Below, piece by piece: positions 3,001 through 35,200 of a stretch of 64,000 nucleotides of DNA. The notes below the pieces were generated by a model. The model was not told where the DNA came from. It searched no databases and was given only the letters and a program-made list of their open reading frames with translations. The DNA is taken from assembly GCA_903813345.2 (NCBI GenBank), contig CAIIXF020000001.1, positions 24,738,001-24,802,000 of the forward strand, written 5' to 3'. The number at the start of each line of letters is the position of its first letter. The stretch's first letter is position 1. Position numbers and translations under genes: made by a program. Origin of the DNA: Owenia fusiformis (taxonomy: Eukaryota).

Positions 3001-6000
3001 CTACAACAACAGTTGATGATGCAACAACGGCTGATGTTACAACAACAATAGCTGACACAACTACAGTGGCTGACGCAACTACGGCAGATACTACAGCAGC
3101 TGATGCTACAAGTACAGTGGCTGACACAACTACAGCTGATGCTACAACAACAGTTGCTGACACAACTACAGTGGCTGACGCAACTACGGCAGATACTACA
3201 GCAGCTGATGCTACAAGTACAGTGGCTGACACAACTAAAGCTGATGCTACAACAACAGTTGCTGATGCAACAACGGCTGATGTCGCAACAACAGTGGCTG
3301 ACACAACTACGGCAGATACTACAGCAGCTGGTGCTACAAGTACAGTGGCCGACACAACTACAGCAGATGTTACAACAACAGTTGCTGATGCAACAACGGC
3401 CGATGTTACAACAACAGTTGTTGACACAACTATAGTGGCTGATGCAACTACGGCAGATACTACAGCAGCTGATGCTACAAGTACAGTGGCTGACACAACT
3501 ACACCTGATGCTACAACAACAGTTGCTGACACAACTACAGTGGCTGATGCAACTACGGCAGATACTACAGCAGCTGATGCTACAAGTACAGTGGCTGACA
3601 CAACTACAGCTGATGCTACAACAACAGTTGCAGATGCAACAACGGCTGATGTTACAACAACAGTTGTTGACACAACTACAGTGGCTGATGCAACTACGGC
3701 AGATACTACAGCAGCTGATGCTACAACTACAGTGGCTGACACAACTACAGCTGATGCTACAACAACAGTTGCTGATGCAACAACGGCCGATGTTACAATA
3801 ACAGTTGCTGACACAACTACAGTGGCTGATGCAACTACGGCAGATACTACAGCACCTGATGCTACAACTACAGTGGCTGACACAGCTACAGCTGATGCTA
3901 CAACAACAGTTGCTGATACAACAACGGCTGGTGTAACAACAACATTAGCTGACACAACTGCAGTGGCTGACGCAATTACGGCAGATTCTACAGCCTCTGA
4001 TGCTACAACTACAGTTGCTGACACAACTACAGCTGATGCTACAACAACAGTTGCTGATGTTACAACGGCTGATGTTACAACAACAGTTGCTGACACAACT
4101 ACATTGGCTGACGCAACTAAGGCAGATACTACAGCAGTTGATGCTACAAGTATAGTGGCTGACACAATTACAGCTGATACTACAACAACAGTTGCTGAGG
4201 CAACAACGGCTGATGTTACAACAACAGTAGCTGCCACAACTACAGTGGCTGACGCAACTACGGCAGATACTTCAGCAGCTGATGCTACAAGTACAGTGGC
4301 TGACACAACTACAGCTGATGCTACAACAACAGTTGATGATGCAACAACGGCTGATGTTACAACAACAATAGCTGACACAATTACAGTGGCTGACGCAACT
4401 ACGGCAGATACTACAGCAGCTGATGCTACAAGTACAGTGGCTGACACAACTTCAGCTGATGCTACAACAACAGTTGCTGATGCAACAACGGCTGATATTA
4501 CAACAACAGTAGCTGACACAACTACAGTGGCTGACGCAACTACGGCAGATACTACAGCAGCTGATGCTACAAGTACAGTGGCTGACACAACTACAGCTGA
4601 TGCTACAACAACAGTTGCTGACACAACTACAGTGGCTGACGCAACTACGGCAGATACTACAGCAGCTGATGCTACAAGTACAGTGGCTGACACAACTAAA
4701 GCTGATGCTACAACAACAGTTGCTGATGCAACCACGGCTGATGTCACAACAACAGTGGATGACACAACTACGGCAGATACTACAGCAGCTGGTGCTACAA
4801 GTACAGTGGCCGACACAACTACAGCAGATGTTACAACAACAGTTGCTGATGCAACAACGGCTGATGTTACAACAACAGTTGTTGACACAACTATAGTGGC
4901 TGATGCAACTACGGCAGATACTACAGCAGCTAATGCTACAAGTACAGTGGCTGACACAACTACAGCTGATGCTACAACAACAGTTGCTGACACAACTACT
5001 GTGGCTGATGCAACTACGGCAGATACTACAGCAGCAGATGCTACAAGTGCAGTGGCTGACACAACTACAGCTGATGCTACAACAACAGTTGCAGATGCAA
5101 CAACGGCTGATGTTACAACAACAGTTGTTGACACAACTACAGTGGCTGAAGCAACTACGGCAGATACTACAGCAGCTGATGCTACAACTACAGTGGCTGA
5201 CACAACTACAGTTGCTGACGCAACTACGGCAGATACTATAGTAGCTGATGCTACAACTACAGTGGCTGACACAACTACAGCTGATGCTACAACAACAGTT
5301 GCTGATGCAACAACGGCTGATGTTACAACAACAGTAGCTGACACAACTACAGTGGCTGACGCATCTACGGCAGATACTACAGCAGCTGATGCTACAACTA
5401 CAGTGGCAGACACAACTACAGCTGATGCTACAACAACAGTTGATGATGCAACAACGGCTGATGTTACAACAACAGTAGCTGACACAACTACAGTGGCTGA
5501 CGCAACTACGGCAGATACTACAGCAGCTGATGCTACAAGTACAGTGGCTGACACAACTACAGCTGATGCTACAACAACAGTTGCTGACACAACTACAGTG
5601 GCTGACGCAATTACGGCAGATACTACAGCAGTTGATGCTACAAGTACAGTGGCTGACACAACTACAGCTGATGCTACAACAACAGTTGCTGATGCAACAA
5701 TGGCTGATGTTACAACAACAGTTGCTGACACAGCTACAGTTGCTGACGCAACTACGGCAGATACTACAGCAGCTGATGCTACAAGTACAGTGGCTGAAAC
5801 AACTACAGCTGATGCTACAACAACAGTTGCTGATGCAACAACAGCTGATATTACAACAACAGTAGCTGACACAACTACAGTGGCTGACGCAACTACGGCA
5901 GATACTACAGCAGCTGATGCTACAACTACAGTTGCTGACACAACTACAGTTGCTGACGCAACTACGGCAGATACTACAGCAGCTGATGCTACAACTACAG

Positions 6001-9000
6001 TGGCTGACACAACTACAGCTGATGCTACAACAACAGTTGCTGATGCAACAACGGCTGATGTTACAACAACAGTTGCTGACACAACTACAGTGGCTGACGA
6101 AACTACGGCAGATACTACAGCAGCTGATGCTACAACTACAGTGGCTGACACAACTACAGCTGATGCTACAACAACAGTTGCTGATGCAACAACGGCTGAT
6201 GTTACAACAACAAGAGCTGACACAACTACAGTGGCTGACGCAACTACGGCAGATACTACAGCAGCTGATGGTACAACAACAGTTACTGATGCAACAACGG
6301 CTGATGTTACAACAACAGTTGCTGATGCAACAACGGCTGATGTTACAACAACAGTAGCTGTCACAACTACAGTGGCTGACGCAACTACGGCAGATACTAC
6401 AGCAGCTGATGCTACAACTACAGTGGCTGACACAACTACAGCTGATGCTACAACAACAGTTGCTGATGCAACAACGGCTGATGTTACAACAACAGTTGCT
6501 GAAGGAAATACGGCAGATACTACAGCAGCTGATGCTACAACTACAGTGGCTGACACAACTACAGCTGATGCTACAACAACAGTTGCTGATGCAACAACGG
6601 CTGATGTTACAACAACAGTTGCTGATGCAACAACGGCTGATGTTACAACAACATTTGCTGACACAACTACAGTGGCTGATGCAACTACGGCAGATACTAC
6701 AGCAGCTGATGCTACAACTACAGTGGCTGACACAACTACAGCTGATGCTACAACAACAGTTGCTGATGCAACAACGGCTGATATTACAACAACAGTAGCT
6801 GACACAACTACAGTGGCTGACGCAACTACGGCAGATACTACAGCAGTTGATGCTACAACCACAGCGGCTGATAGAACTACAGCTGATGCTACAACAACAG
6901 TTGCTGATGCAACAACGGCTGATGTTACAACAACAGTAGCTGACACAACTACAGTGGCTGACACAACTACAGCTGATGCTACAACAACAGTTGCTGATGC
7001 AACAACGGCTGATGTTACAACAACAGTTGCTGACACAACTACAGTTTCTGACGCAACTACGGTAGATACTACAGCAACTGATGCCACAACTACAGTGGCT
7101 GACACAACTACAGCTGATGCTACAACAACAGTTGCTGATGCAACAACGGCTGATGTTACAACAACAGTAGCTGACACAACTACAGTGGCTGATGCAACTA
7201 CGGCAGATACTACAGCAGCTGATGCTACAAGTACAGTGGCTGACACAACTACAGCCGATGCTACAACAACAGTTGCTGATGCAACAACGGCTGATGTTAC
7301 AACAACAGTAGCTGACACAATTACAGTGGCTGACGCAACTACGGCAGATACTACAGCAGCTGATGCTACAGCTACAGTGGCTGACACAACTACAGCTGAT
7401 GCTACAACAACAGTTGATGATGCAACAACGGCTGATGTTACAACAACAGTAGCTGACACAACTACAGTGGCTGACGCAACTACGGCAGATACTACAGAAG
7501 CTGATGCTACAACAACAGTAGCTGACACAACTACAGTGGCTGACGCAACTACGGCAGATACTACAGTTGCTGATGCAACAACGGCCGATGTTACAACAAC
7601 ATTTGCTGACACAACAACAGTGGCTGACGCAACTACGGCAGATACTACAGCAGCTGATGCTACATCTACAGTGGCTGACACAACTACAGCTGATGGTACA
7701 ACAACAGTTACTGATGCAACAACGGCTGATATTACAACAACAGTAGCTGACACAACTACAGTGGCTGACGCAACTACGGCAGATACTACAGCAGCTGATG
7801 CTACAACCACAGCGGCTGATAGAACTGCAGCTGATGCTACAACAACAGTTGCTGATGCAACAACGGCTGATGTTACAACAACAGTTGCTGACACAACTAC
7901 AGTTTCTGACGCAACTACGGCAGATACTAGAGCAGCTGATGCTACAAGTACAGTGGCTGGCACAACTACAGCCGATGCTACAACAACAGTTGCTGATGCA
8001 ACAACGGCTGATGTTACAACAACAGTAGCTGACACAACTACAGTGGCTGACGCAACTACGGCAGATACTACAGCAGCTGATGCTACAACCACAGTGGCTG
8101 ACACAACTACAGCTGATGCTACAACAACAGTTGCTGATGCAACAACGGCTGATGTTACAACAACAGTAGCTGATACAACTACAGTGGCTGACGCAACTTC
8201 GTCAAATACTACAGCAGCTGATGCTACAACTACAGTGGCTGACACAACCACAGCTGATGCTACAACAACAGTTGCTGATGCAACAACGGCTGATGTTACA
8301 ACAACAGTTGCTGACACAACTACAGTGGCTGACACAACTACAGCTGATGCTACAACAACAGTTGCTGATGCAACAACGGCTGATGTTACAACAACAGTTG
8401 CTGACACAACTACAGTTTCTGACGCAACTACGGCAGATACTACAGCAGCTGATGCTACAAGTACAGTGGCTGACACAACTACAGCCGATGCTACAACAAC
8501 AGTTGCTGATGCAACAACGGCTGATGTTACAACAACAGTAGCTGACACAACTACAGTGGCTGACGCAACTACGGCAGATACTACAGCAGCTGATGCTACA
8601 TCTACAGTGGCTGACACAACTACAGCTGATGGTACAACAACAGTTGCTGAGGCAACAACGGCTGATGTTACAACAACATTTGCTGACACAACAACAGTGG
8701 CTGACGCAATTACGGCAGATACTACAGCAGCTGATGCTACATCTACAGTGGCTGACACAACTACAGCTGATGGTACAGCAACAGTTGCTGATGCAACAAC
8801 GGCTGATGTTACAACAACAGTTGCTGACACAACTACAGTGGCTGACACAACTACGGCAGATACTACAGCAGCTGATGCTACAACCACAGTGGCTGACACA
8901 ACTACAGCTGATGCTACAACAACAGTTGCTGATGCAACAACGGCTGATGTTACAACAACAGTAGCTGACACAACTACAGTGGCTGACGCATCTACGGCAG

Positions 9001-12000
9001 ATACTACAGCAGCTGATGCTACAACTACAGTGGCTGACACAACTACAGCTGATGCTACAACAACAGTTGATGATGCAACAACGGCTGATGTTACAACAAC
9101 AGTAGCTTACACAACAACAGTTGATGATGCAACAACGGCTGATGTTACAACAACAGTAGCTGACACAACTACAGTGGCTGACGCAACTACGGCAGATACT
9201 ACAGCAGCTGATGCTACAAGTACAGTGGCTGACACAACTACAGCTGATGCTACAACAACAGTTGCTGACACAACTACAGTGGCTGATGCAACTACGGCAG
9301 ATACTACAGCAGCTGATGCTACAAGTACAGTGGCTGACACAACTACAGCTGATGCTACAACAACAGTTGCTGATGCAACAACGGCTGATGTTAAAACAAC
9401 AGTTGCTGACACAACTACAGTTGCTGACGCAACTACGGCAGATACTACAGCAGCTGATGCTACAAGTACAGTGGCTGAAACAACTACAGCTGATGCTACA
9501 ACAACAGTTGCTGATGCAACAACGGCTGATGTTACAACAACAGTTGCTGACACAACTACAGTGGCTGACGCAACTACGGCAGATACTACAACAGCTGATG
9601 CTACAACTACAGTGGCTGACACAACTACAGCTGATGCTACAACAACAGTTGCTGATGCAACAACGGCAGATACTACAGCAGCTGATGCTACATTTACAGT
9701 GGCTGACACAACTACAGCTGATGCTACAACAACAGTTGCTGATGCAACAACGGCTGATGTTACAACAACAGTTGCTGACACAACTACAGTGGCTGATGCA
9801 ACTAAGGCAGATACTACAGCAACTGATGCTACATACACAGTGGCTGACACAACTACAGCTGATGCTACAACAACAGTAGCTGACACAACTACAGTGGCTG
9901 ACGCAACTACGGCAGATACTACAGCAGCTGATGGTACAACTACAGTGGCTGACACAACTACAGCTGATGCTATAACAACAGTTGCTGATGCAACAACGAC
10001 TGATGTTACAACAACAGTAGCTGACACAACTACAGTGGCTGACACAACTACAGCTGATGCTACAGCAACAGTTGCTGATGCAACAACGGCTGATGTTACA
10101 ACAACAGTTGCTGACACAACTACAGTGGCTGACGCAACTACGGCAGATACTACAGCAGCTGGTGCTACAACTACATTGGCTGACACAACTACAGCTGATG
10201 CTACAACAACAGTTGCTGATGCAACAACGGCTGATGTTACAACAACAGTTGCTGACACAACTACAGTGTCTGACGCAACTACGGCAGATACTACAGCAGC
10301 TGATGCTACAACCACAGTGGCTGACACAACTACAGCTGATGCTACAACAACAGTTTCTGATGCAACAACGGCTGATGTTACAACAACAGTTGCTTACACA
10401 ACTACAGTTGCTGACACAACTACGGTAGATACTACAGCAGCTGATGCCACAACTACAGTGGCTGACACAACTACAGCTGATGCTACAACAACAGTTGCTG
10501 ATGCAACAACGGCTGATGTTACAACAACAGTAGCTGACACAACTACAGTGGCTGGCGTAACTACGGCAGATACTACAGTTGCTGATGCAACAACGGCCAA
10601 TGTTACAACAACATTTGCTGACACAACAACAGTGGCTGACGCAACTACGGCAGATACTACAGCAGCTGGTGCTACAACTACATTGGCTGACACAACTACA
10701 GCTGATGCTACAACAACAGTTTCTGATGCAACAGCGGCTGATGTTACAACAACAGTTGCTTACACAACAACAGTTGCTGACACAACTACAGTGGCTGATG
10801 CAACTAAGGCAGATACTACAGCAACTGATGCTACAACCAGAGTGGCTGACACAACTACAGCTGATGCTACAACAACAGTTGCTGATACAACTACAGTGGC
10901 TGACGCAACTACGACAGATATTATAGCAGCTGATGCTACAACCACAGTGGCTGACACAACTACAGCTGATGCTACAACAACAGTTGCTGATGCAACAACG
11001 GCTGATGTTACAACAACAGTAGCTGACACAACTACAGTGGCTGACGCAACTGCGGCAGATACTACAGCAGCTGATGCTATAACTACAGTGGCTGACACAA
11101 ATACATCTGATGCTACAACAACAGTTGCTGATGCAACAACGGCTGATATTACAACAGCAGTTGCTGATACAGCTACAGTGATTGACGCAACTACGGCAGA
11201 TACTACAGCAGCTGATGCTACAACCACAGCGGCTGATACAACTACAGCTGATGCTACAACAACAGTTGCTGATGCAACAACGGCTGATGTTACAACAACA
11301 ATAGCTGACACAACTACAGTGGCTGACACAACTACAGCTGATGCTACAACAACAGTTTCTGATGCAACAACGGCTGATGTTACAACAACAGTTGCTTACA
11401 CAACTACATTTGCTGACACAACTACGGTAGATACTACAGCAGCTGATGCCACAACTACAGTGGCTGACACAACTACAGCTGATGCTACAACAACAGTTGC
11501 TGATGCAACAACGGCTGATGTTACAACAACAGTTGCTGACACAACTACAGTGTCTGACGCAACTACGGCAGATACTACAGCAGCTGATGCTACAACCACA
11601 GTGGCTGACACAACTACAGCTGATGCTACAACAACAGTTGCTGATGCAACAACGGCTGATGTTACGATAACAGTAGCTGACACAACTACAGTGGCTGACG
11701 CAAGTACGGCAGATACTACAGCAGCTGATGCTACAACTACAGTGGCTGACACAACTACAGCTGATGCTACAACAACAGTTGCTTATGCAACAACGGCTGA
11801 TGTTACAACAACAGTTGCTGACACAACTACAGTTGCTGACGCAACTACAGCAGATACTACAGCAGCTGATGCTACAATTTCAGTGGCTGAAACAACTACA
11901 GCTGATGCTACAACAACAGTTGCTGATGCAACAACGGCTGATGTTACAACAACAGTAGCTGACACAACTACAGTGGCTGACGCAACTACGGCCGATACTA

Positions 12001-15000
12001 CAGCAGCTGATGCTACAACCACAGCGGCTGATACAACTACAGCTGATGCTACAACAACAGTTGCTGATGCAACAACGGCTGATGTTACAACAACAGTAGC
12101 TGACACAACTACAGTGGCTGACACAACTACAGCTGATGCTACAGCAACAGTTGCTGATGCAACAACGGCTGATGTTACAACAACAGTTGCTGACACAACT
12201 ACAGTGGCTGACGCAACTACGGCAGATACTACAGCAGCTGATGCTACAACTACAGTGGCTGACACAACTACAGCTGATGCTACAACAACAGTTGCTGATG
12301 CAACAACGGCTGATGTTACAACAACAGTTGCTCACACAACTACAGTGGCTGACGCAACTACGGCAGATACTACAGCAGCTGATGCTACAAGTACAGTGGC
12401 TGACACAACTACAGCTGATGCTACGACAACAGTTGCTGATGCAACAACGGATGATGTTACAACAACAGTAGCTGACACAACTACAGTGGCTGATGCAACT
12501 ACGGCAGATACAACAGCAGCTGATGCTCCAAGTACAGTGGCAGACACAACTACAGCTGATGCTACAACAACAGTTGATGATGCAACAACGGCTGATGTTA
12601 CAACAACAGTAGCTGACACAACTACAGTGGCTGACGCAACTACGGCAGATACTACAGCAGCTGATGCTACAAGTACAGTGGCTGACATAACTACAGCTGA
12701 TGCTACAACAACAGTTGATGATGCAACAACTGCCGATGTTACAACAACATTTGCTGACACAACAACAGTGGCTGACGCAACTACGGCAGATACTACAGCA
12801 GTTGATGCTACAAGTACAGTGGCTGACACAATTACAGCTGCTTCTACAACAACAGTTGCTGATGCAGCAACGGCTGATGTTACAACAACAGTAGCTGACA
12901 CAACTACAGTGGCTGAAACAACTATGGCCGATACTACAGCAGCTGATGCTACAAGTACAGTGGCTGACACAACTACAGCTGATGCTACAATAACAGTTGC
13001 TGATGCAACAACGGCCGATGTTACAATAACAGTTGCTGACACAACTACAGTGGCTGACGCAACTACGGCAGATACTACAGCAGCTGATGCTACAAGTACA
13101 GTGGCTGACACAACTATAGCTGATGATAGAACCACAGTTGCTGATGCAACTACGGCTGATGTTACAACAACAGTAGCTGACACAACTACAGAGGCTGACG
13201 CAACTACGGCAGATACTTTAGCAGCTCATGCTACAAGTACAGTGGCTGACACAACTACAGCTGATGCTACAACAACAGTTGCAGATGCAATAACGGCTGA
13301 TATTACAACAACAGTTGCTGACACAACTACAGTGGTTGACGCAACTACGGCAGATACTACAGCAGCTGAGGCTACAACTACAGTGGCTGACACAGCTACA
13401 GCTGATGCTACAACAACGTTTGCAGATGCAACAACGGCTGATGTTACAACAACAGTTGTTGACACAACTACAGTGGCTGATGCAACTACGGCAGATACTA
13501 CAGCCTCTGATGCTACAAGTACAGTGGCTGACACAACAACAGCTGATGCTACAACAACACTTGCTGATGCAACAACGGCTGATGTTACAACAAGAGTAGC
13601 TGACACAACTACAGTGGCTGACGCAACTACGGCAGATACTACAGCAGCTGATGTTACAAGTACAGTGGCCGACACAACTACAGCTGATGCTACAACAACA
13701 GTTGCTGATGCAACAACGGCTGATGTTACAACAACAGTAGCTGACACAACTACAGTGCCCGACACAACTACGGCAGATACTACAGCAGCTGATGCTACAA
13801 CCACAGTGGCTGACACATCTACAGCTGAAGCTACAACAACAGTTGCTGATGCAACAACGACTGATGTTACAACAACAGTAGCTGACACAACTACAGTGGC
13901 TGAAGCAACTACGGCAGATACTACAGCAGCTGATGCTACAAGTACAGCGGCTGACACAACTACAGCTGATGCTACAACAACAGTTGCTGATGTAACAACG
14001 GCTGATATAACAAAAACAGTTGCTGACACAAATACAGTGGCTGACGCATCTACGACAGATACTACAGCACCTGATGCTACAACTACAGTGGCTGACACAG
14101 CTACAGCTGATGCTACAACAGCAGTTGCTGATACAACAACGGCTGATGTTACAACAACAGTAGCTGACACAACTGCAGTGGCTGACGCAACTACGGCAGA
14201 TTCTACAGCCTCTGATGCTACAAGTACAGTTGCTGACACAACTACAGCTGATGCTACAACAACAGTTGCTGATGTTACAACGGCTGATGTTACAACAACA
14301 GTTGCTGACACAACTACAGTGGCTGACGCAACTACGGCAGATACTACAGCAGTTAATGCTACAAGTACAGTGGCTGACACAATTACAGCTGATACTACAA
14401 CAACAGTTGCTGATGCAACAACGGCTGATGTTACAACAACAGTAGCTGACACAACTACAGTGGCTGAAACAACTATGGCAGATACTACAGCAGCTGATGC
14501 TACAAGTACAGTGGCTGACACAACTACAGCTGATGCTTCAACAACAGTTGCTGATGCAACAACGGCCGATGTTACAATAACAGTTGCTGACACAACTACA
14601 GTGGCTGATGCAACTACGGCAGATACTACAGCAGCTGATGCTACAAGTACAGTGGCTGACACAACTATAGCTGAGGAAACAACCACAGTTGAGGATGCAA
14701 CTACGGCTGATGTTACAACAACAGTAGCTGACACAACAACAGTGGCTGACGCAACTACGGCAGATACTTCAGCAGCTGATGCTACAAGTACAGTGGCTGA
14801 CACAACTACAGCTGATGCTACAAGAACAGTTGATGATGCAACAACGGCTGATGTTACAACAACAATAGCTGACACAACTACAGTGGCTGACGCAACTACG
14901 GTAGATACTACAGCAGCTGATGCTACAAGTACAGTGGCTGACACAACTACAGCTGGTGCTACAACAACAGTTGCAGATGCAACAACGGCTGATATTACAA

Positions 15001-18000
15001 CAACAGTTGCTGACACAACTACAGTGGTTGACGCAACTACGGCAGATACTACAGCAGCTGATGCTACAGCTACAGTGGCTGACACAACTACAGCTGATGC
15101 TACAACAACAGTTGATGATGCAACAACTCCTGATGTTACAACAACAGTAGCTGACACAACTACAGTGCCTGACGCAACTACGGCAGATACTACAGCAGCT
15201 GATGCTACAGCTACAGTGGCTGACACAACTACAGCTGATGCTACAACAACAGTTGATGATGCAACAACGGCTGATGTTACAACAACAGTAGCTGACACAA
15301 CTACAGTGGCTGACGCAACTACGGCAGATACTACAGCAGCTGATGCTACAACTACAGTGGCTGACTCAACTACAGCTGATGCTACAACAACAGTTGCTGA
15401 TGCAACAACAGCCGCTGATGCAACAAGTACAGTGGCTGACACAACTACAGCTGATGCTACAACAACAGTTGCTGATGCAACAACGGCTGATGTTACATCA
15501 AGAGTAGCTGACACAACTACAGTGCCTTACGCAACTACGGCAGATACTACAGCAGCTGATGCTACAGCTACAGTGGCTGACACAACTACAGCTGATGCTA
15601 CAACAACAGTTGCTGATGCAACAACGGCTGATGTTACAACAACAGTAGCTGACACAACTACAGTGGCTGACGCAACTACGGCAGATACTACAGCAGCTGA
15701 TGCTCCAACTACAGTGGCTGACACAACTACAGCTGATGTTACAACAACAGTTGCTGACACAACTACAGTGGCTGACGCAACTACTGCAGATACCACAGCA
15801 GCTGATGCTACAAGTACAGTGGCTGACACAACTACAGCTGATGCTACAACAACAGTTGCTGACACACCTACAGTGGCTGACGCAACTACGGCAGATACTT
15901 CAGCAGCTAGTGCTACAAGTACAGTGGCGGACACAACTACAGTGGCTGACGCATCTACGACAGATACTACAGCACCTGATGCTACAACTACAGTGGCTGA
16001 CACAGCTACAGCTGATGCTACAACAGCAGTTGCTGATACAACAACGGCTGATGTTACAACAACAGTAGCTGACACAACTGCAGTGGCTGACGCAACTACG
16101 GCAGATTCTACAGCCTCTGATGCTACAAGTACAGTGGCTGACACAACTACAGCTGATGCTACAACAACAGTTGCTGATGTTACAACGGCTGATGTTACAA
16201 CAACAGTTGCTGACACAACTACAGTGGCTGACGCAACTACGGCAGATACTACAGCAGTTAATGCTACAAGTACAGTGGCTGACACAATTACAGCTGATAC
16301 TACAACAACAGTTGCTGATGCAACAACGGCTGATGTTACAACAACAGTAGCTGACACAACTACAGTGGCTGAAACAACTATGGCAGATACTACAGCAGCT
16401 GATGCTACAAGTACAGTGACTGACACAACTACAGCTGATGCTACAACAACAGTTGCTGATGCAACAACGGCCGATGTTACAATAACAGTTGCTGACACAA
16501 CTACAGTGGCTGATGCAACTACGGCAGATACTACAGCAGCTGATGCTACAAGTACAGTGGCTGACACAACTATAGCTGAGGATACAACCACAGTTGAGGA
16601 TGCAACTACGGCTGATGTTACAACAACAGTAGCTGACACAACAACAGTGGCTGACGCAACTACGGCAGATACTTCAGCAGCTGATGCTACAAGTACAGTG
16701 GCTGACACAACTACAGCTGATGCTACAAGAACAGTTGATGATGCAACAACGGCTGATGTTACAACAACAATAGCTGACACAACTACAGTGGCTGACGCAA
16801 CTACGGTAGATACTACAGCAGCTGATGCTACAAGTACAGTGGCTGACACAACTACAGCTGGTGCTACAACAACAGTTGCAGATGCAACAACGGCTGATAT
16901 TACAACAACAGTTGCTGACACAACTACAGTGGTTGACGCAACTACGGCAGATACTACAGCAGCTGATGCTACAGCTACAGTGGCTGACACAACTACAGCT
17001 GATGCTACAACAACAGTTGATGATGCAACAACTCCTGATGTTACAACAACAGTAGCTGACACAACTACAGTGCCTGACGCAACTACGGCAGATACTACAG
17101 CAGCTGATGCTACAGCTACAGTGGCTGACACAACTACAGCTGATGCTACAACAACAGTTGATGATGCAACAACGGCTGATGTTACAACAACAGTAGCTGA
17201 CACAACTACAGTGGCTGACGCAACTACGGCAGATACTACAGCAGCTGATGCTACAACTACAGTGGCTGACTCAACTACAGCTGATGCTACAACAACAGTT
17301 GCTGATGCAACAACAGGCGCTGATGCAACACGTACAGTGGCTGACACAACTACAGCTGATGCTACAACAACAGTTGCTGATGCAACAACGGCTGATGTTA
17401 CATCAAGAGTAGCTGACACAACTACAGTGCCTTACGCAACTACGGCAGATACTACAGCAGCTGATGCTACAGCTACAGTGGCTGACACAACTACAGCTGA
17501 TGCTACAACAACAGTTGCTGATGCAACAACGGCTGATGTTACAACAACAGTAGCTGACACAACTACAGTGGCTGACGCAACTACGGCAGATACTACAGCA
17601 GCTGATGCTCCAACTACAGTGGCTGACACAACTACAGCTGATGTTACAACAACAGTTGCTGACACAACTACAGTGGCTGACGCAACTACTGCAGATACCA
17701 CAGCAGCTGATGCTACAAGTACAGTGGCTGACACAACTACAGCTGATGCTACAACAACAGTTGCTGACACACCTACAGTGGCTGACGCAACTACGGCAGA
17801 TACTTCAGCAGCTAGTGCTACAAGTACAGTGGCGGACACAACTACAGCTGATGCTACAACACCACAAGCTGACACAACTACAGTGGCTGACGCATCTACG
17901 GCAGATACTACAGCAGCTGATTCTACAACTACAGTGGCAGACACAACTACAACTGATGCTACAACGGCTGATGTTACAACAACAGTAGCTGAGACAACTA

Positions 18001-19510
18001 CAGCGGCTGACGTAACTACGCCAGATACTACAGCAGCTGATGCCAAAACCACAGTGGCGGACACAACTACAGCTAATGCTACAACAACAGTTGCTGATGC
18101 AAAAACGGCTGATGATACAACAACAGTTGCTGACACAACTACAGTGGCTGACACAACTACGGCAGATAATGCAGCAGCTGATACTACAACTACAGTGGCT
18201 GACACAACAACAGCTGATGTTACAAAAACAGTTGCTGATGCAACAACAGCTGATGTTACAACAACACTAGCTTACAAAACTACAGTGGCTGACGCAACTA
18301 CGGCAGATACTACAGCAGCTGGTGCTACAACAACAGTGGCTGAAAGAACTACAACTGATGCTACAACAACAGTTGCTGATGCAACAACGGCTGATGTTAC
18401 AACATTAGTTCCTGACACAACTACAGCGGCTGACGCAACTACGGCAGATACTACAGCAGCTGATGCTTCAACTTCAGTGGCTGACACAACTACAGCTGAT
18501 GCTACAACAACAGGTGCTGATGCAACAACAGCTTATGTTACAACAACAGTAGTTGACACAACTACAGTGGCTGACGCAGCTACATCAGATACTACTGCAG
18601 CTGATGCTACAACTACAATTGCTGACACAACTACAGCTGATGATACAACAACAGTTGATGATGCAACAACGGCTGATGTTACAACAACAGTTGCTGACAC
18701 AACTACATTGGCTGTCACAACTACGGCAGATACTACAACAGTTGATGCTTCACTTAGAGTGGCTGTCACAACTACAGCTGATGCTACAACAACATTTGCT
18801 GATGCAAGAACGGATAATATTACAACAACAGTTGCTGGCACCACTAAAGTGGCTGACGCAACTACGGCAAATACTACAACAGCTGATGCTCTAACTACAA
18901 TGGTTGACACAACTACAGCTGATGCTACAACAACTGTTGCTGATGCAACAACGGCTTATGTAACAATAACAATTGCTGGCACAACTGCAGTAGCTGACGC
19001 AACTACGGCATATACTACAGCAGCTGATGCTACAACACAAGTGGCTGATGCAACAGCAGCTGATATAACAACTACAGTTGCTGGCACAACTACAGTGGCT
19101 GACGCAACTACGTCAGATACTACAGCAGCGGATGCTACAACTACATTGGCTGACACAACTACAGCTGATGCTACAACAACAATTGCTGATGCAACAACGG
19201 CTGATGTTACAACAACAGTAGCTGACACAACTACAGTTGATGATACAACAACAGTTGCTGATGCAACAACGGCTAATGTTACAACAACAGTTGCTGACAC
19301 AACTACAGTGGCTAATGTTACACAAGCTGTCACTACGACACATGCAACTACGACAGATACTACAGCAGCTGATGCTACAACTACTGTGGTTGACACAACT
19401 ACAACTTATGCTACAACAACAGTTGCTGATGCAACAACGGCTGATGTTACAACAACACTTGCCAACATAATTACAGTGGCTGACACAACTGCGGCTGATG
19501 CAACAAGTAC
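1..19510 (+). repeat. Coding tandem array A; consensus unit 141 bp / 47 aa, ADTTTV-ADATT-ADTTA-ADATTTV-ADTTT-ADATTTV-ADATT-ADVTTTV
   Basis: Marker tacggcagat recurs at 141-bp spacing (e.g. 1061 and 1202). Shorter units lack whole 15/18/21-bp sub-repeats. The array degenerates after ~17850. Confidence 0.95.
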
Positions 19511-19679
19511 ATTCCCAACATCTGGTCTTACAACTATAAGTTCTTTGCTTTACATAGTTCAACTAAATGGGACTGTCAGAATAACACATTACATGGGGGA
19601 AGCTGCAGAGTATAATTCTACGCTTGACGACGCGACGTCATATTTTTACTCTAAACTGTCGTCCGAGGCATGTGGAGAG
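1..19679 (+). CDS. Giant coding exon A (5'-truncated by the window) of a mucin-like glycoprotein: ~6,500 aa Thr/Ala/Asp/Val repeat plus N-half of a SEA domain
   Basis: Frame +3 is open from base 3 (ACA GCA CCT GAT...), so the GTG at 27 is not a real start. Track ORF 27..19694. The repeat decays near 19500 into unique sequence LYIVQLNGTVRITHYMGEAAEYNSTLDDATSYFYSKLSSEACGE, followed by a phase-0 donor GAG|GTAATG at 19679/19680. Confidence 0.93.
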
Positions 19680-19804
19680 GTAATGTTTTTGTAAATTATT
19701 AATGCCAAATGTCTGTTATTTCTCGATCAAATTGGCATAGTGAAATAAATAAGCAAATGGAAGAGATACATGTCAAGTTTTTATATGTACAATCTTTATT
19801 TTAG
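19680..19804 (+). other. Intron 1 (125 bp, phase 0, GT-AG), splitting the SEA domain
   Basis: Starts GTAATG, ends tctttattttAG; AT-rich with an in-frame stop at 19692-19694; removing it gives a continuous ...EACGE|ITTAF... reading. Confidence 0.9.
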
Positions 19805-20024
19805 ATCACTACTGCATTTGCTTCTACGACATATTCCTCGATTTACGTATCCTGTTCCATAACAGGATTTTCGTCTGGTAGTATTCTTGCAAGTTTTACG
19901 TTGGATTTCGAACAAGAAGTTGAAAGCACGTTGAACTCTTCCAACGCACAGAGTGAGCTTTCTGATAATATAGGAACGTCTACAACAACTGTTGTGTTTG
20001 ACTCATCACATACGACTATATCAG
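19805..20024 (+). CDS. Coding exon B (220 bp): C-half of the SEA domain, ITTAFASTTYSSIYVSCSITGFSSGSILASFTLDFEQEVESTLNSSNAQSELSDNIGTSTTTVVFDSSHTTIS
   Basis: Acceptor ttttAG|ATC at 19804/19805; same frame as track ORF 19901..20086; donor TCA G|GTAAAT at 20024/20025 (phase 1). GFSSGSILASFTLDF fits the SEA pattern F-x-x-G-S-(I/V)-x-x-x-F-x-L-x-F. Confidence 0.9.
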
Positions 20025-20800
20025 GTAAATGTACTGCATGTATTTCTCAATTTATTGAATTACATATTCACGGTGTTATAGCATGACGGTTACGCCACCT
20101 CTGAAAACGAGGTTGGGCGGCTTCGTTCACTGATTTATCCAATAAAATGGCCGCGGTGGAAGAGAAAACTAAGGTTGGTGCATTATTTTCTACAACTGTG
20201 TATCAATGAAAGGATGAACGATTTATGTAAGCCTTGCATTCGGTGATGCATCCAGTAATGTATATTTTGAACGTAGTCTTTGCAAATTGATGCCGGGTGA
20301 TAAAATGAAATAAAAGAAAAACTGTCGAGTTATAAATTCAAAACTACACAAAATTTAGTAATTTGATTATTTTTGTTGTTAGGACATGGTCTATATTGCC
20401 TAACAACCTTGGGGTATATAAATGTAACCTACATACGATCATAAAAAGCCAATTGAGCATTGGAAACCACCTAATATGTTCTACTCAAGCCATAATAATG
20501 TATTTTAAATTTGCGGTAACGTAAAAAGTATACACCACGTTCCTGTTCTGGATTTGTCATTTTATGGCTTGTTTATACACAGTTTACTTACAGTTAATAT
20601 TTTGAGTGGCTCTCAGGCACATGAACTGGGAAAACACGAGGATGGATCAAAAATTATGAATTTGGATATCTTAGTCGGTAGGTTTACAGCTTATATTCTG
20701 TTTCTTGTAGACCACCTGGCAGATTTGACCCAGTCTTTATAACCATCCATATATACGTCACCGAATGGAACTAGTTTAAAGTGTCTCACATATTCGATCA

Positions 20801-21194
20801 AAAGGACGATTCTCGGTTTGGAGAACGAAGTTCATCAATCTAAATGAGCATTATCCCTGCTTCGGACAAATTTGATTTTTTTACATAATATAGATTTGAA
20901 TGTCTTCTTTTGAATAGTCATAATTTAATTTGGGTAATATTTCTTGATTTTTCGCAAAAAGATATCAGCGCAGTACACTGACAGTACACTTTCCCCAAAT
21001 CGAGACTTGTATTTTTATTGAATCGGTCTAATTGAAGGCTATCCCTGCTTCAGACCAATTTGTTATTTTTACATCTTGTAGATTTAAATATCCTCTTTTG
21101 AATATTCATAGTTTAATTTGGGTAATATTTCTATATTTTTCCTGAAAAAATTATTAGTCCAGGAGACTGTTCTCCAAACCGAGAATCGTCCTTT
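20801..21194. mobile_element. MITE-like element (394 bp) nested in the CACGGTG transposon, with perfect 26-bp TIRs and an internal ~188-bp-offset duplication
   Basis: aaaggacgattctcggtttggagaac (20801-20826) is the reverse complement of gttctccaaaccgagaatcgtccttt (21169-21194). Internal direct repeat atccctgcttc...tttaatttgggtaatatttct starts at 20853 and 21041. No clear TSD. Confidence 0.75.
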
Positions 21195-21519
21195 CCCATG
21201 CAAACATGTTAGTCTACTTTACTGGCCCCCTTGCTGTAACAAGGAACACAAAACACATTTTAAACGTAAACATAAACCAATTAGTCAGACGATCACTTTA
21301 CTATGAAAGTTAGGGGTGTTCAAGGCAAATGTGTATTAGCAGAATACGCTGTGTGCATGGACTAACACAATGTCAGTGGTCATTTACTGTGTCAACTTAG
21401 TAACCCTTGCATATCGTGCTCACTCAAGTATTAAATAATTTTTTTATGATCTAAATGTTTGTGGTTTATAAAAAAATGTGATATATTTTAGTTGGAAATA
21501 CATTAATAAATATATTCAT

Positions 21520-21983
21520 TCAAACAGCACTAGAATGCGGGGAGAAAGAGCAATGGTGACAAAATGCAGACCGAATTTTCCGTAAGGGTTTCAAACATTT
21601 CTGGACACAATCATACATGTACTTCATGTGTACTGTTATTTTTAGTGCTGTCTTTATAGATATAATTTCACGTATTAAAATCATATCTTCCAGCAATGAC
21701 TTCAAATTCGGAACCACCCCCATATCACATTTTCTTTAATAACTCCAAACATGTGTAAACATTGACCATGTGCATATAAATTCAGATTTCACGAGCTCTT
21801 TCCTATTCGAGTACCTCATACACCCCTGCATTGATTTGAGTTGGATTCGCCTTTTATACGTGAGCCGGTACACATCGCAAACGCTGATTGGATAAAGATT
21901 GCGAGAATCTTTAAAAGGAAATCTTATCTCTGAATATTGCCTACAGGCAAGAAAGAGGACATGCTGCCTTTCCCATCCGCCAT
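21520..21983 (-). pseudogene. Decayed N-terminus of a RAG1-like/Chapaev-like transposase (CND/Chapa zinc finger, possibly followed by a RING remnant)
   Basis: aaaATGGCGG at 21983 just inside the right TIR; one frame away WERQHVLFLACRQ[Y], then DSRNL[Y]PISVCDV[Y]RLTYKRR (D-x4-H/Y-x4-C-x2-C spacing; bracketed Tyr codons are one transition from Cys or His), a frameshifted EF-YAHGQC-YTC, and CVQKCLKPLRKIRSAFCHHCSF. By-eye motif match only. Confidence 0.5.
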
Positions 21984-22090
21984 TTTTTGTTATCGTTACC
22001 GCAAAATTTTGCAAATCGCCTTGACGTAACCGTCATGCTATAACACCGTGATATTAGGTTACTAATTATTTTTTATATCAGTCCAACCGC

Positions 22091-22655
22091 TAGTCATCCA
22101 GACTGTATTTACTGAAATAAAATTTCTAATTTTTTTTTGATCTTTAAAAAAAATTCTGCAAAAAACACATCTTTTACCCCAAAACACATTTTGACACCTA
22201 TTTCTTCTTGTTAAATCTCAGTATCAATTAAGAAACCAATTATCTTTCAATTAGTTAACATGACTTGCCTGCTCGTCAAAAAGAGGTCATTATATTTTCA
22301 ATGCACTGATTCTAGTCTACATTCATTTCACTATGTGCCAACCATAAGAGAAATCTCTAAAACCTCCCCATAATCACCAAAATCGATCAAAACTAATTAA
22401 TATTCACTTTTCCATAGTCAATCAGATTGTATTTACTAAAATAAAATTTCTAAAAAATGTTTTAAATTTCTAAAAACAAATTCTGCGAAAAAACACGACT
22501 TTTACCCAAAAACACAATTTGACACCTATTTCGTCTTGTTAAATCTCAGTATCAATTAAGGAACCCTTTTCCTTTCAACTAGTTAACATGACTTGCCTGC
22601 TCGTCAAAATATAAGATGTCATTATATTTTCAACCCCCTGATTCTAGTCTATATT
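22091..22655. repeat. Imperfect direct repeat, two copies of ~235 bp
   Basis: tagtca..caga.tgtatttact.aaataaaatttctaa ... gttaaatctcagtatcaattaag ... gttaacatgacttgcctgctcgtcaaaa ... tgattctagtcta at ~22091-22323 and ~22415-22655. Confidence 0.9.
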
Positions 22656-29421: not shown

Positions 29422-30466
29422 AACAAGGGCTGAAGATAGAAAATTCGAAAATTCTTACTTTTTCTGAGCAAAATGGCCGCCAAATTGAAAAATTCAAAAT
29501 GGCCACCATGTAATTCAGCAAGCATACCCAAAACCTAATCAGATCTTGGCAATAGTCTGCTCTTGCATCTGTAAAAATTTCAAGTTGAACGGATAAGTAG
29601 TTTTCCTGGAATTTTGATGACAAAATTTGTTGAAAAATTCAAAATGGCCGTCACGTAGTTTACCCAGCATGCCCTAAACCTAATCAGATCTTAGCACCAG
29701 TCTGCTATTGCATGTGTAAAAATTTCAAGTTGAACAGGTTAGCGGTTTTCTTGGAATTTTGATGACAAGAATTGATTTGTAGTCTCAAACTTTGAGAAAC
29801 TTGGATAACATCATTTGTGACCTAATTTAATGACCTTGACCTTCGACCTTGAAAATTTCACTTTTTCAGACCTCAGTAGGTGTTTTGTAATTAAGCTGAC
29901 CTAAATTTAAATCCAAAATATCAATTTAGAAAATCAACTTTTTGATCTTTTCAAGGTCACTGAAGGTGAACGAAAGGTCAAATCTGAAATCTAAGGTCAG
30001 ATTTGAACTTCTGAGAACTTGTAAATGTTTTTTAAAAAAAAAATTGGTCAATTTGGAGCAAGTTGAAAAATTCAAAATGGCCGCCAAATTGAAAAATTCA
30101 AAATGGCCACCATGTAATTCAGCCAGTATACCCAAAACCTATTCAGATCTTGGCAATAGTCTGCTCTTGCATCTGTAGAAATTTCAAATTGAACGGATAA
30201 GTGGTTTTCTTAAAATTTTGATGACAAGATTTGTTGAAAAATTCAAAATGGCCGCCACGTAGTTTACCCAGCATGCCCTTACCTAATCAGATCTTGGTAC
30301 TAGTCTGCTCTTGCATCTGTAAAAATTTCAAGTTGAACAGGTAAGCAGTTATCCTGGAAATTTGATGAAAAGATTTGGTTTATGTGCCGCCCGCCCGCAC
30401 ACCCGGCCGCCCGCCCAACAGCACAAGACGACGACAGTATAGCACTTTTTCAAAGTGCGATAAAAA
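29422..30466 (+). mobile_element. Non-autonomous Helentron/HINE(DINE-1)-like element with internal sub-repeats
   Basis: Starts AACAAG; a ~300-bp block is duplicated at 29471 and 30075; sub-repeats aaaaattcaaaatggcc...cctaatcagatctt...aaaatttcaagttgaac; central tgacctt/aaggtca motifs; GCCC microsatellite (~30386-30416); 3' hairpin tatagcac-tttttcaaa-gtgcgata followed by an A-run. Class inferred from architecture. Confidence 0.65.
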
Positions 30467-31700: not shown

Positions 31701-32131
31701 TTTCATCGCAAATGAACTTTAAAAATATATATAACTCTTAAATAGGACTTTAATTCATGATCAATGTTTTATCAAAATGTATACTAGGTAGGATTCGCAC
31801 TCTAATTCGCTAATAAAATATCAACCCTAAGGTGGGGTTTCGTTAAAAAGAAAATATGTCGTGTCCAGAATCAAATAATTTGTCCAAAACCTTTAACGAT
31901 CCTGTTTATTGATTCACTGGCTTTGCGTTCACTACGTTGTGAAAAATATCACAATCTTAAACTCTCTATTGCTTGCGAAATACGGTGGTAACCAAGATAC
32001 AATGGCGTCAATATTCTTTTATAGGTACAAGTCAAACCGAACATTACGAAATTTTAGAATTAGATAAACGTATCTATTGTTTTCTATAACAATTCTACAG
32101 ATGTATGAGTGACATAAATGATATGTTACAG

Positions 32132-32268
32132 ATGTTGACGAATGTATTGAAAGCATCGATACCTGTTCACCATATGCAACATGTAGCAATACAGATGGTG
32201 GATACATATGTACCTGCCTGGATGGATACATAGACACATCGCAAGGAGGATATACAGGACGAGTTTGC
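32132..32268 (+). other. Calcium-binding EGF-like domain: DVDECIESIDTCSPYATCSNTDGGYICTCLDGYIDTSQGGYTGRVC
   Basis: Six Cys in EGF spacing, N-terminal D-x-D-E-C, the C-x-N-x-x-G-x-Y-x-C-x-C Asn-hydroxylation consensus, and a preceding phase-1 intron as is typical for EGF modules. Confidence 0.95.
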
Positions 32269-35200
32269 AAAGATGATGCCGCGACAACAGTGGTTGATCC
32301 AACTCGAGTTGATTCTTCAACAACAGCTGATACTGCAACAACTAAGGTCATCACTTTAACTACAGTGGCTGACACAACTACAGGTGATGTTACAACAACT
32401 GTAGCTGAGACAACTAAAGTGGTTGGCATGACTACAGCTGATGCTACAGAAGCAGTTTCTGATGGAACAACGGCTGATGTTTCAACAACAGTTGCTGACA
32501 TATCTACAGTGGTTGACGCAAGTACTGCAGATACTTCAGCAGATGATGCTTCAACTACAGTGGCTGACACAACTACAGATGATGCTACAACAACAGTTGC
32601 TGATGCAAGTACGGCTGATGTTACAACAACAGTAGCTAACACAACTACAGCAGCTGTTGCTAAAAGTACAGTGGCTGACACAACTACAGCTGATGCTACT
32701 ACAACAGTTCCTGATGCAACAAAGGCTGATGTTACAACAACAGTAGCCGACACAACTACAGTGGCTGACGCAACTACGGCAGATACTACAGCAGCTGATG
32801 CTACAACTACAGTGGCTGACAGAACTACAGCTGATGCTACAACAACAGTTGCTGATGCAACAACTGCTGATGTTACAACAACAGTTGCTGACATATCTAC
32901 AGTGGTTGACGCAAGTACTGCATATACTGCAGCAGATGATGCTTCAACTACAGTGGCTGACACAACTACAGATGATGCTACAACAACAGTTGCTGATGCA
33001 AGTACGGCTGATGTTACAACAACAGTAGCTAACACAACTAAAGTGGCTGACGCAACTACGGCAGATTCTACAGCAGCTGATACTACAACTATATTGCCTG
33101 ATACAACTACAGCTGATGCTACAACAACATTTGCTGATGCAAAAACGGCTGATGTTACAACAACAGTTGCATACACAACTACAGTGGCTGACACAACTAC
33201 GGCAGATTTTACAGCAGCTGATGCTACAACTACAGTGGCTGACAGAACTACAGCTGATGTTACAACAATAGTTGCTGACACAAAAACGGTTAATGTTAGA
33301 ACAACAGCTGCTGACACATTGAAATTGGCTGGCGCAATTACGGCAGATACTACATCAGCTGATGCTACAACTACAGTTGCTGATGCAAGAACGGCTGATG
33401 TTAAAACAACAGTAGCTGACACAACTACAGCGGCTGAAACAACTACTGCTGATGCTACAACAACAGATGCTGATGCAACAACGGCTGATGTTACAACAAC
33501 AGTTGCTGTTACAACTACAGTGACTGACGCAACTACGGCAGATACTACAGCAGCTGATGGTCTAACTACAGTGGCTGACACAACTATAGCTGATGCTACA
33601 ACAACAATTACTGATGCAACAACAGATGATGTTACAACAACAGTTGCTGACACAACTAAAGTGACTGACGCATCAACGGCAAATACTACAGCAGCTGGAG
33701 CTCTAACTACAGTGGCTGACACAACTACAGCTGATGCTACAACAACAGTTGCTGATGTAACTATAGTGGCTGACGCAACTACGGCAGACACTACAGCAAC
33801 TGATGCTACAAGTACAGTGGCTGACACAAATACAGCTGATACTACAACAACAGTTGCTGATGCAACAACGGCTGATGATACAACAACAGTTGCTGACACA
33901 ACTACAGTGGCTGAGACAACTACGGCAGATACTACAGCAGCTGATGCTACAAGTAATGTGGGTGACACAACTACAGCTGATGTTACAACAACAGTTGCTG
34001 ATGCAACAATGGCTGATGTTACAACAACAGTTGCTGACACAACTACAGTGGCTGACGCAACTACGGCAGATACTACAGCAGCTGATGCTACAACTACAGT
34101 GGCTGACACAAATACAGCTGATGCTACATCTACAGTTGCTGATGCAACAACGGCTGATGTTACAACAACAGTAGCTGACACAACTACAGTGGCTGAGACA
34201 ACTACGGCAGATACTACAACAGCTGATGCTACAACTACAGTGACTGACACAATTACAGCTGATGCTTCAACAACAGTTGCTGATGCAACAACGGCTGATG
34301 TTACAACAACAGTAGCTGACACAACTACAGTGGCTGACGCAACTACGGCAGATACTACAGCAGTTGATGCTACAAGTACAGTGGCAGACACAACTGCAGC
34401 TGATGCTACAACAACAGTTGCTGATGCAACATCGGCTGATGTTACAACAACAGTTGCTGACACAACTACGGTGGCTGACGCAACTACGGCAGATACTACA
34501 GTAGCTGATGCTACAAGTACAATGGCTGACACAAATACATCTGATGCTACAACAACAGTTGCTGATGCAACAACGGCTGATGTTACAACAACAGTAGCTG
34601 ACACAACTACAGTGTCTGACGCAACTACGGCAGATACTACAGCAGCTGATGCTACAAGTACAGTGGGTGACACAACTACAGCTGATGTTACAACAACAGT
34701 TGCTGATGCAACAATGGCTGATGTTACAACAACTACAGTTGATGCTGCAACAACAGTTGCTGATGCAACAACGGCTGATTTTACAACAACAGTTGCTGAC
34801 ACAACTACAGTGGCTGACACAACTACGGCAGATACTACAGCAGCTGTTGCTAAAAGTACAGTGGTTGACACAACTACAGCTGATGCTACTACAACAGTTC
34901 CTGATGCAACAAAGGCTGATGTTACAACAACAGTAGCCGACACAACTACAGTGGCTGACGCAACTACGGCAGATACTACAGCAGCTGATGCTACAACTAC
35001 AGTGGCTGACAGAACTACAGCTGATGCTACAACAACAGTTGCTGATGCAACAACTGCTGATGTTACAACAACAGTTGCTGACACAACTACAGTTGCTGGC
35101 GCGACTACGGCAGATACTACAGCAGCTGATGCTACAAGTACAGTGGCTGACACAACTACAGCTGATGCTACAAAAACAGTTGCTGATGCAACAATGGCTG

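Follow-up and report, generated by a model that had tools for sequence, protein, structure and literature searches.

We examined a 64,000-nucleotide stretch of the Owenia fusiformis genome (contig CAIIXF020000001.1 of assembly GCA_903813345.2; hereafter the window, with positions counted from its first letter) and found a 1982-bp element (20069–22050, + strand) with inverted repeats at both ends and read-depth edges at the same places. It is close to certain that this element is a non-autonomous cut-and-paste transposon from an amplified family. Judged by their sequence, its CAC...GTG termini place it in the CACTA-Mirage-Chapaev-Transib group. Because these termini are combined with an exact ATATT on either side, which fits a 5-bp duplication, we somewhat favour a Transib-type transposase, a DDE enzyme related to the RAG1 core, as its most likely mobiliser. 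An earlier note on this DNA had proposed a relic of a RAG-like or Transib transposon; the Transib-type identity is probable, and the link to RAG is unsupported.

The element is bounded by two terminal inverted repeats of 26 nt, located at 20069–20094 (+ strand) and 22025–22050 (− strand). Both arms read CACGGTGTTATAGCATGACGGTTACG (100% identity) and start with the heptamer CACGGTG. The 26-nt repeat has two matches in the whole window at up to three mismatches, and none of 100 dinucleotide-preserving shuffles gave any, which bears out the earlier description of perfect 26-bp repeats. In a repeat search the two arms reached 30 nt with 97% identity (20068–20097 and 22022–22051). The gain is a single T/A pair on the outside and, towards the interior, three bases of which one is mismatched. 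Inward of the terminal repeats the similarity is weak and gapped, so that the two ends do diverge past 26 bp as the note had stated, though the pair reaches 30 nt.

The repeats are flanked by ATATT on both sides (20064–20068 and 22051–22055). Among all lengths from 2 to 10 bp adjoining the CAC termini, five is the only one with no mismatch; lengths of 2, 3 and 4 bp give 1, 1 and 3 mismatches, respectively. This flank mismatch test ruled out, for this copy, duplications of TA, TTAA, 4 bp and 6–10 bp, which occur in other superfamilies. An exact flanking repeat of at least 5 bp at a spacing of 1982 bp was seen at 16 of 10402 positions elsewhere in the intron, corresponding to a chance of ~0.0015.

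Membership in an amplified family is evident from public sequencing runs. We used raw reads of run X17 accepted at a likeness of at least 88%, with both strand columns summed. Single-copy flank bins showed a depth of 6.8–10.2 (~1 copy), and the bin just left of the element (19973–20063) a depth of 1.9. The outer part of the element was covered at 249–653, corresponding to roughly 30–80 copies. The step from 1.9–10 to 313 and above coincides with the bins starting at 20064 and ending at 22065. Three bins within 20792–21155 belong to a nested segment and reached 2754–2944 (~330 copies), whereas the region 21247–21428 was covered at 70–138 (~8–16 copies). The pattern was the same in contigs of X1, X5 and X13, each a run of a different study. 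A self-BLAST found no second copy of the element in the window, and a 21-mer of the terminal repeat had no match in metagenome_contigs or in viral_contigs.

A common short form of the family has a length of 847 bp. It consists of 20069–20774 joined to 21910–22050 and lacks the segment 20775–21909 (+ strand). The joint 20774->21910 was found in 112 reads of X17 as well as in contigs of X1, X5 and X13, and a TTTAAA microhomology is present at this site.

The copy in the window differs from the majority of its family. Among 40 listed rows in which the reads show another letter (361 more exist), 22 concern outer positions (of 1588) where at least 90% of the X17 reads carry a base other than that of this copy. 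The terminal repeats contain none of these 40 rows. The copy is at least 1.4% off the family majority and hence not brand-new, and nothing special is required to account for its intact repeats. Some reads that carry a variant show no other difference from this copy, from which it follows that near-identical sister copies exist. The fairly recent mobilisation suggested in the note holds in a relative sense only, given the 22 or more outer positions at which this copy stands apart from at least 90% of the reads. Family contigs of X1 often break at 20527–20529, where 17 continue behind 20527 and 38 enter before 20529. One of these continuations holds sequence resembling the inner terminal repeat. 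Such breaks give the element the appearance of a mosaic assembled from parts of its family.

The longest open reading frame (ORF) in the element comprises 98 amino acids. None of the nine ORFs of at least 50 amino acids reached a Pfam cut-off. The sole Pfam match, to NADHdh-2_N (17.7 bits, cut-off 25), lies on an AT-rich ORF and was rejected. For an ORF of 77 amino acids no relatives were found among proteins of 42–135 amino acids. The 98-residue ORF (21736–22032, − strand), which enters the right repeat, had one match among 1.84 billion proteins (P0002, library E-value 2.1e-9). P0002 is an mTERF-repeat protein that was matched with six repeated stretches, the best pair scoring 37.7 bits at 27% identity. 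We judged this similarity to be a chance match inflated by repeats and rejected the ORF as a captured gene. Since there is no recognisable coding content, the copy is non-autonomous, in agreement with the decayed interior and the movement in trans described earlier.

The octamer CGGTWACG occurs four times in the 64-kb window, and all four occurrences lie within the element in mirror orientation. Two of them are part of the terminal repeats (20087–20094, + strand; 22025–22032, − strand). A third is subterminal, 31 nt inward of the one in the right repeat (21994–22001, − strand), and forms an inverted pair with an internal one on the left side (20514–20521, + strand). This arrangement makes CGGTWACG a plausible candidate for a transposase-binding motif.

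A second, more abundant family is represented by a miniature inverted-repeat transposable element (MITE) of ~394 bp nested in the outer element (20801–21194). It has perfect 26-nt inverted repeats with the ends AAAGGACG...CGTCCTTT and a depth of ~2750–2950. Its boundaries at 20801 and 21194 were found in four runs. An internal direct duplication of 142 bp was detected by self-BLAST (20839–20980 versus 21027–21169, 80% identity). Outer copies without the MITE are represented by the joints 20803->21192 (52 reads) and 20803->21196 (88 reads). In these copies, positions 20804–21191 are cleanly removed, or ATTG/CTTG is present at the site. No flanking duplication was seen around the nested MITE, and a 23-mer from it had no match in metagenome_contigs.

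The probable assignment to Transib draws on a comparison with published systems. Among eukaryotic superfamilies, Transib has been described as unique in making 5-bp duplications, and CAC is invariant at positions 1–3 of its ends (Kapitonov and Jurka, PMC1131882). CAC termini together with a 5-bp duplication are published hallmarks of Transib and of RAG-like (RAGL) transposons (PMC1131882, PMC7204232), as the earlier note had stated. The element resembles non-autonomous Transib elements, i.e. Transib-N of insects and sea urchin and Hopper/Kodama of Drosophila, in having CAC at positions 1–3 and, on the 5-bp reading, an exact 5-bp duplication. Further similarities are inverted repeats some tens of bp long, a noncoding interior, a short form made by precise deletion and an apparent target-site preference. 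In a Transib family of Drosophila, derivatives with a precise internal deletion predominate (bioRxiv 10.64898/2026.08.26.747230), which closely resembles the short form described here. According to a Repbase rule, a non-autonomous element is classified by sharing the duplication length with a classified family and by termini that can be aligned to it over positions 1–11 with at most one mismatch (PMC4455052).

Several points weigh against a Transib-type mobiliser. No transposase was seen in this copy, and the superfamily is read from the structure of the ends. The 38-bp Transib end is composed of CACAATG, a 23-bp spacer and AAAAAAATC (PMC1131882). The CACGGTG at both ends of the element has the exact CAC but agrees with CACAATG at only five of seven positions. 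An A-rich nonamer as in the Transib and recombination signal sequence (RSS) consensus was not found 12 or 23 bp from the heptamer at either end. Positions 20–28 read GGTTACGCC at the left and GGTTACGTC at the right end, and positions 31–39 read CTCTGAAAA and GGCGATTTG, respectively. The note had likewise reported no convincing nonamer at either spacing, and we found no 12/23 asymmetry between the two ends. Transib targets have been described as GC-rich even in AT-rich genomes, some families being highly target-specific (PMC1131882), and those of HzTransib are slightly GC-enriched. The targets observed here (ATATT in this copy, ATATT and TTATT at other ends) are AT-rich and neither GC-rich nor CAxTG-like, although the GC-rich preference is a described tendency and not a strict criterion. 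For one Transib lineage, duplications of 5 bp, of 3 bp and of TA have been reported (bioRxiv 10.64898/2026.08.26.747230), which makes duplication length a soft character in both directions.

The last of these points concerns the duplication itself. If T20068 and A22051 are counted into the repeat, it grows to 27 nt and is flanked by an exact 3-bp duplication of TAT (20065–20067 and 22052–22054). This arrangement fits equally well, so that of the 5-bp duplication claimed earlier the exact ATATT match stands while its length does not follow. The 5-bp and 3-bp readings use the same bases and the same empty site, and this copy does not tell them apart. The empty allele is expected to read ...ACATATTAGG... 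and thus to hold ATATT once. If the duplication has 3 bp, the chance that an extra A and T mimic ATATT is ~0.11; if it has 5 bp, the chance of a complementary first and last base is ~0.27. The joint 20068->22056, which would represent the empty site, is not among the 15 joints listed (103 more exist) and carries no weight either way.

Other ends of the family were seen among the best-supported loose ends of reads and contigs; with 1848 further rows, this sample is small and selected. Including the copy in the window, the right flanks start with A in four of four cases and the left flanks end with T in two of two, and TAT lies beside this A or T in three flanks. The other visible flanks read ATATT.., ..TTATT, AT.. 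and AA... In a contig of X1, the right end runs into ATATTGTG..., and 33 nt on, ...CCCTTATT leads into a left end. In this contig (22026->20065), two equally oriented family copies are separated by 33 nt, and 13 nt of the right repeat (22027–22039) are apparently missing from the first one. Loose ends of X5 and X13 at 22051/22052 show AT+CAATC... and A+ATACG... after the right end. Family copies outside the window stop at the same place, which counts in favour of the proposed transposon. The recurring A/T flanks speak against ATATT as a mere accident of AT-rich DNA, the case that the note had named as a refutation, and are compatible with either duplication length. Either the shared T/A belongs to the element itself, or sites of the (A/T)TATT type are preferred as targets; this ambiguity, too, counts among the points against the Transib-type assignment.

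If the T/A is the element's own, the true ends would be TCAC...GTGA with 27-bp repeats and a 3-bp TAT duplication, and the 5-bp match would be a by-product of TAT and the adjoining A and T. The element would then belong to another superfamily, a relative of the CACTA-Mirage-Chapaev (CMC) elements or an undescribed lineage. We regard this as possible, if doubtful. The exact TAT beside an outermost repeat of 27 nt argues for it, and ATATT would be mimicked with a chance of ~0.11. The T/A is present at all other visible ends (three further right, one further left), with TAT beside it in two of them. CMC elements (CACTA/EnSpm, Mirage, Chapaev) share the CAC...GTG termini, the repeated subterminal motifs and, if T/A is counted in the repeat, the 3-bp duplication; the combination of CAC..GTG with 3-bp duplications has been described for EnSpm-like elements (PMC12730594). 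In CMC elements, however, the duplication adjoins CAC directly, whereas here no exact duplication of 2–4 bp lies beside CAC (at least one mismatch each), and the end is not CACTA. The outer A/T is explained equally well by a target preference, and the other ends form a very small, selected sample. We know of no superfamily in which the repeat starts with T-CAC and the duplication comprises 3 bp.

A closer relationship to the RAG system appears highly improbable. On that reading the element would be a non-autonomous derivative of a RAGL transposon of the RAG1L-RAG2L (ProtoRAG) type, as known from amphioxus, oysters, a nemertean and a hemichordate. It shares with these the CAC tip and, on the 5-bp reading, the duplication length, and non-autonomous RAGL elements have been reported (PMC7204232). 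It also has a YY1-type motif near its ends: CGCCATTTT at 21978–21986 (+ strand), 65–73 nt from the right end, matches CGCCATNTT, a match in sequence only. This is the only match in the window, with an inverted counterpart at the left side that differs by one mismatch (AAAATGGC, 20144–20151). The pair recalls the YY1 site (TR5) in the terminal repeats of ProtoRAG (PMC7481187). This parallel was drawn post hoc. In ProtoRAG the site is closer to the tip, and promoters frequently contain YY1 sites. The protostome RAGL ends follow the consensus CACTWMCAAACKTYKBB with AAA at positions 8–10 and have 5-bp duplications (Martin et al., PMC7204232); a preprint on RAGL-A describes TR2 as important for cleavage. 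The first 17 nt of the element fit this consensus at seven of 17 positions, three of which are degenerate, and positions 8–10 are TTA instead of the conserved AAA of TR2. No RAG1L or RAG2L remnant was found in the ORFs of the element (up to 98 amino acids, no Pfam cut-off reached), although a derivative need not carry one. The likeness of CACGGTG to the RSS heptamer, which had suggested the RAG connection in the note, is real but generic. CACTA, Mirage, Chapaev, Transib and their allies have CA..TG termini in common, with duplications of 2–5 bp (Kojima, PMC12730594), so the likeness implies no special link to RAG. As far as its sequence goes, the element is not of the ProtoRAG/RAGL type, and the proposal of a RAG-like relic is not borne out.

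An immobile inverted repeat that arose by chance or locally in an AT-rich intron has only the AT-richness of the flanks in its favour and is refuted by the read-depth data, in which both the raw reads and the contigs of three other runs show a depth 30–80 times that of the flanks, changing sharply at the repeats, as well as by the 0 of 100 shuffles. In the literature, we found no paper pairing Transib with this heptamer. Papers listed for the heptamer together with transposons looked unrelated to transposon ends by title and abstract, and 12–13-mers of either repeat were not found in print. A characterised insect Transib may carry the same heptamer, a point given no weight here.

The element most simply lies within an intron of a mucin-like gene. 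The predicted upstream exon (19805–20014, + strand) would encode the second half of a SEA-like domain (Pfam SEA, E-value 0.00031, 21.3 bits, under the cut-off of 26.4). The corresponding ORF stops at AG|GTAAAT (20014/20015), and the element begins 54 nt beyond. A search made with this SEA-like exon gave no match. Downstream, a host frame starts with a calcium-binding EGF domain (32122–32300, + strand; EGF_CA, 37.6 bits, cut-off 27) followed by TTTVAD-type repeats. The GT at 20015 and the EGF_CA frame from 32122 agree with the intronic position given in the note, a placement that we infer from sequence features. Two open frames on the + strand, 3–19694 (6563 codons) and 32122–63999 (10626 codons), consist almost entirely of TTTVAD-type hexapeptide repeats with periods of 18, 141, 282 and 423 nt. 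Between them lies an AT-rich stretch of 12.4 kb (GC 0.32–0.37). The intron contains neither an Rfam family nor a tRNA, so an RNA origin was rejected. Together with the SEA-like and EGF_CA modules, the two frames look like one giant membrane-mucin-like gene exceeding both ends of the window.

The same intron contains further repeats. A direct duplication of ~220 bp (22098–22310 and 22420–22640, units ~320 bp apart) was noticed by eye a few bases to the right of the element. A part of this duplication, 22157–22338, is itself moderately repeated in the genome (depth 25–113 versus ~8). Two arrays at 29485–29773 and 30089–30377, 600 bp apart, each comprise two units of 144–145 bp, and their consensus sequences are nearly equal.

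Based on the structure of the ends and the family data we propose the following course of events for a Transib-type mobilisation. The element, which has no gene of its own, would depend for its movement on a transposase encoded at another genomic site and binding to its ends. This enzyme would recognise the 26-bp repeat through its CAC tip and the subterminally recurring CGGTWACG. It would nick at the CAC boundary and release the element via hairpins on the flanking DNA. Insertion would proceed through 5-bp staggered cuts at AT-rich, (A/T)TATT-like sites. As read from the data, the lineage acquired the nested MITE, and the 847-bp short form arose by internal deletion at the TTTAAA microhomology. 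We consider it rather unlikely that this small-genome host (~200 Mb from rough read depth) harbours an undescribed autonomous copy with a still-active Transib-type transposase that prefers AT-rich (A/T)TATT targets and reads a CAC heptamer together with CGGTWACG and YY1-type sites as in ProtoRAG.

The element is an ordinary find for a marine invertebrate. CAC-ended non-autonomous transposons are common in invertebrate genomes, and its general interest is low. For annotation the result is useful, since the outer element and the nested MITE are now defined as two repeat families, along with a frequent deletion form. A Transib-type autonomous partner with AT-rich target choice, if proved true, would add some value. 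Target selection and end recognition vary in the RAG1-related group and are of interest with regard to mechanism.

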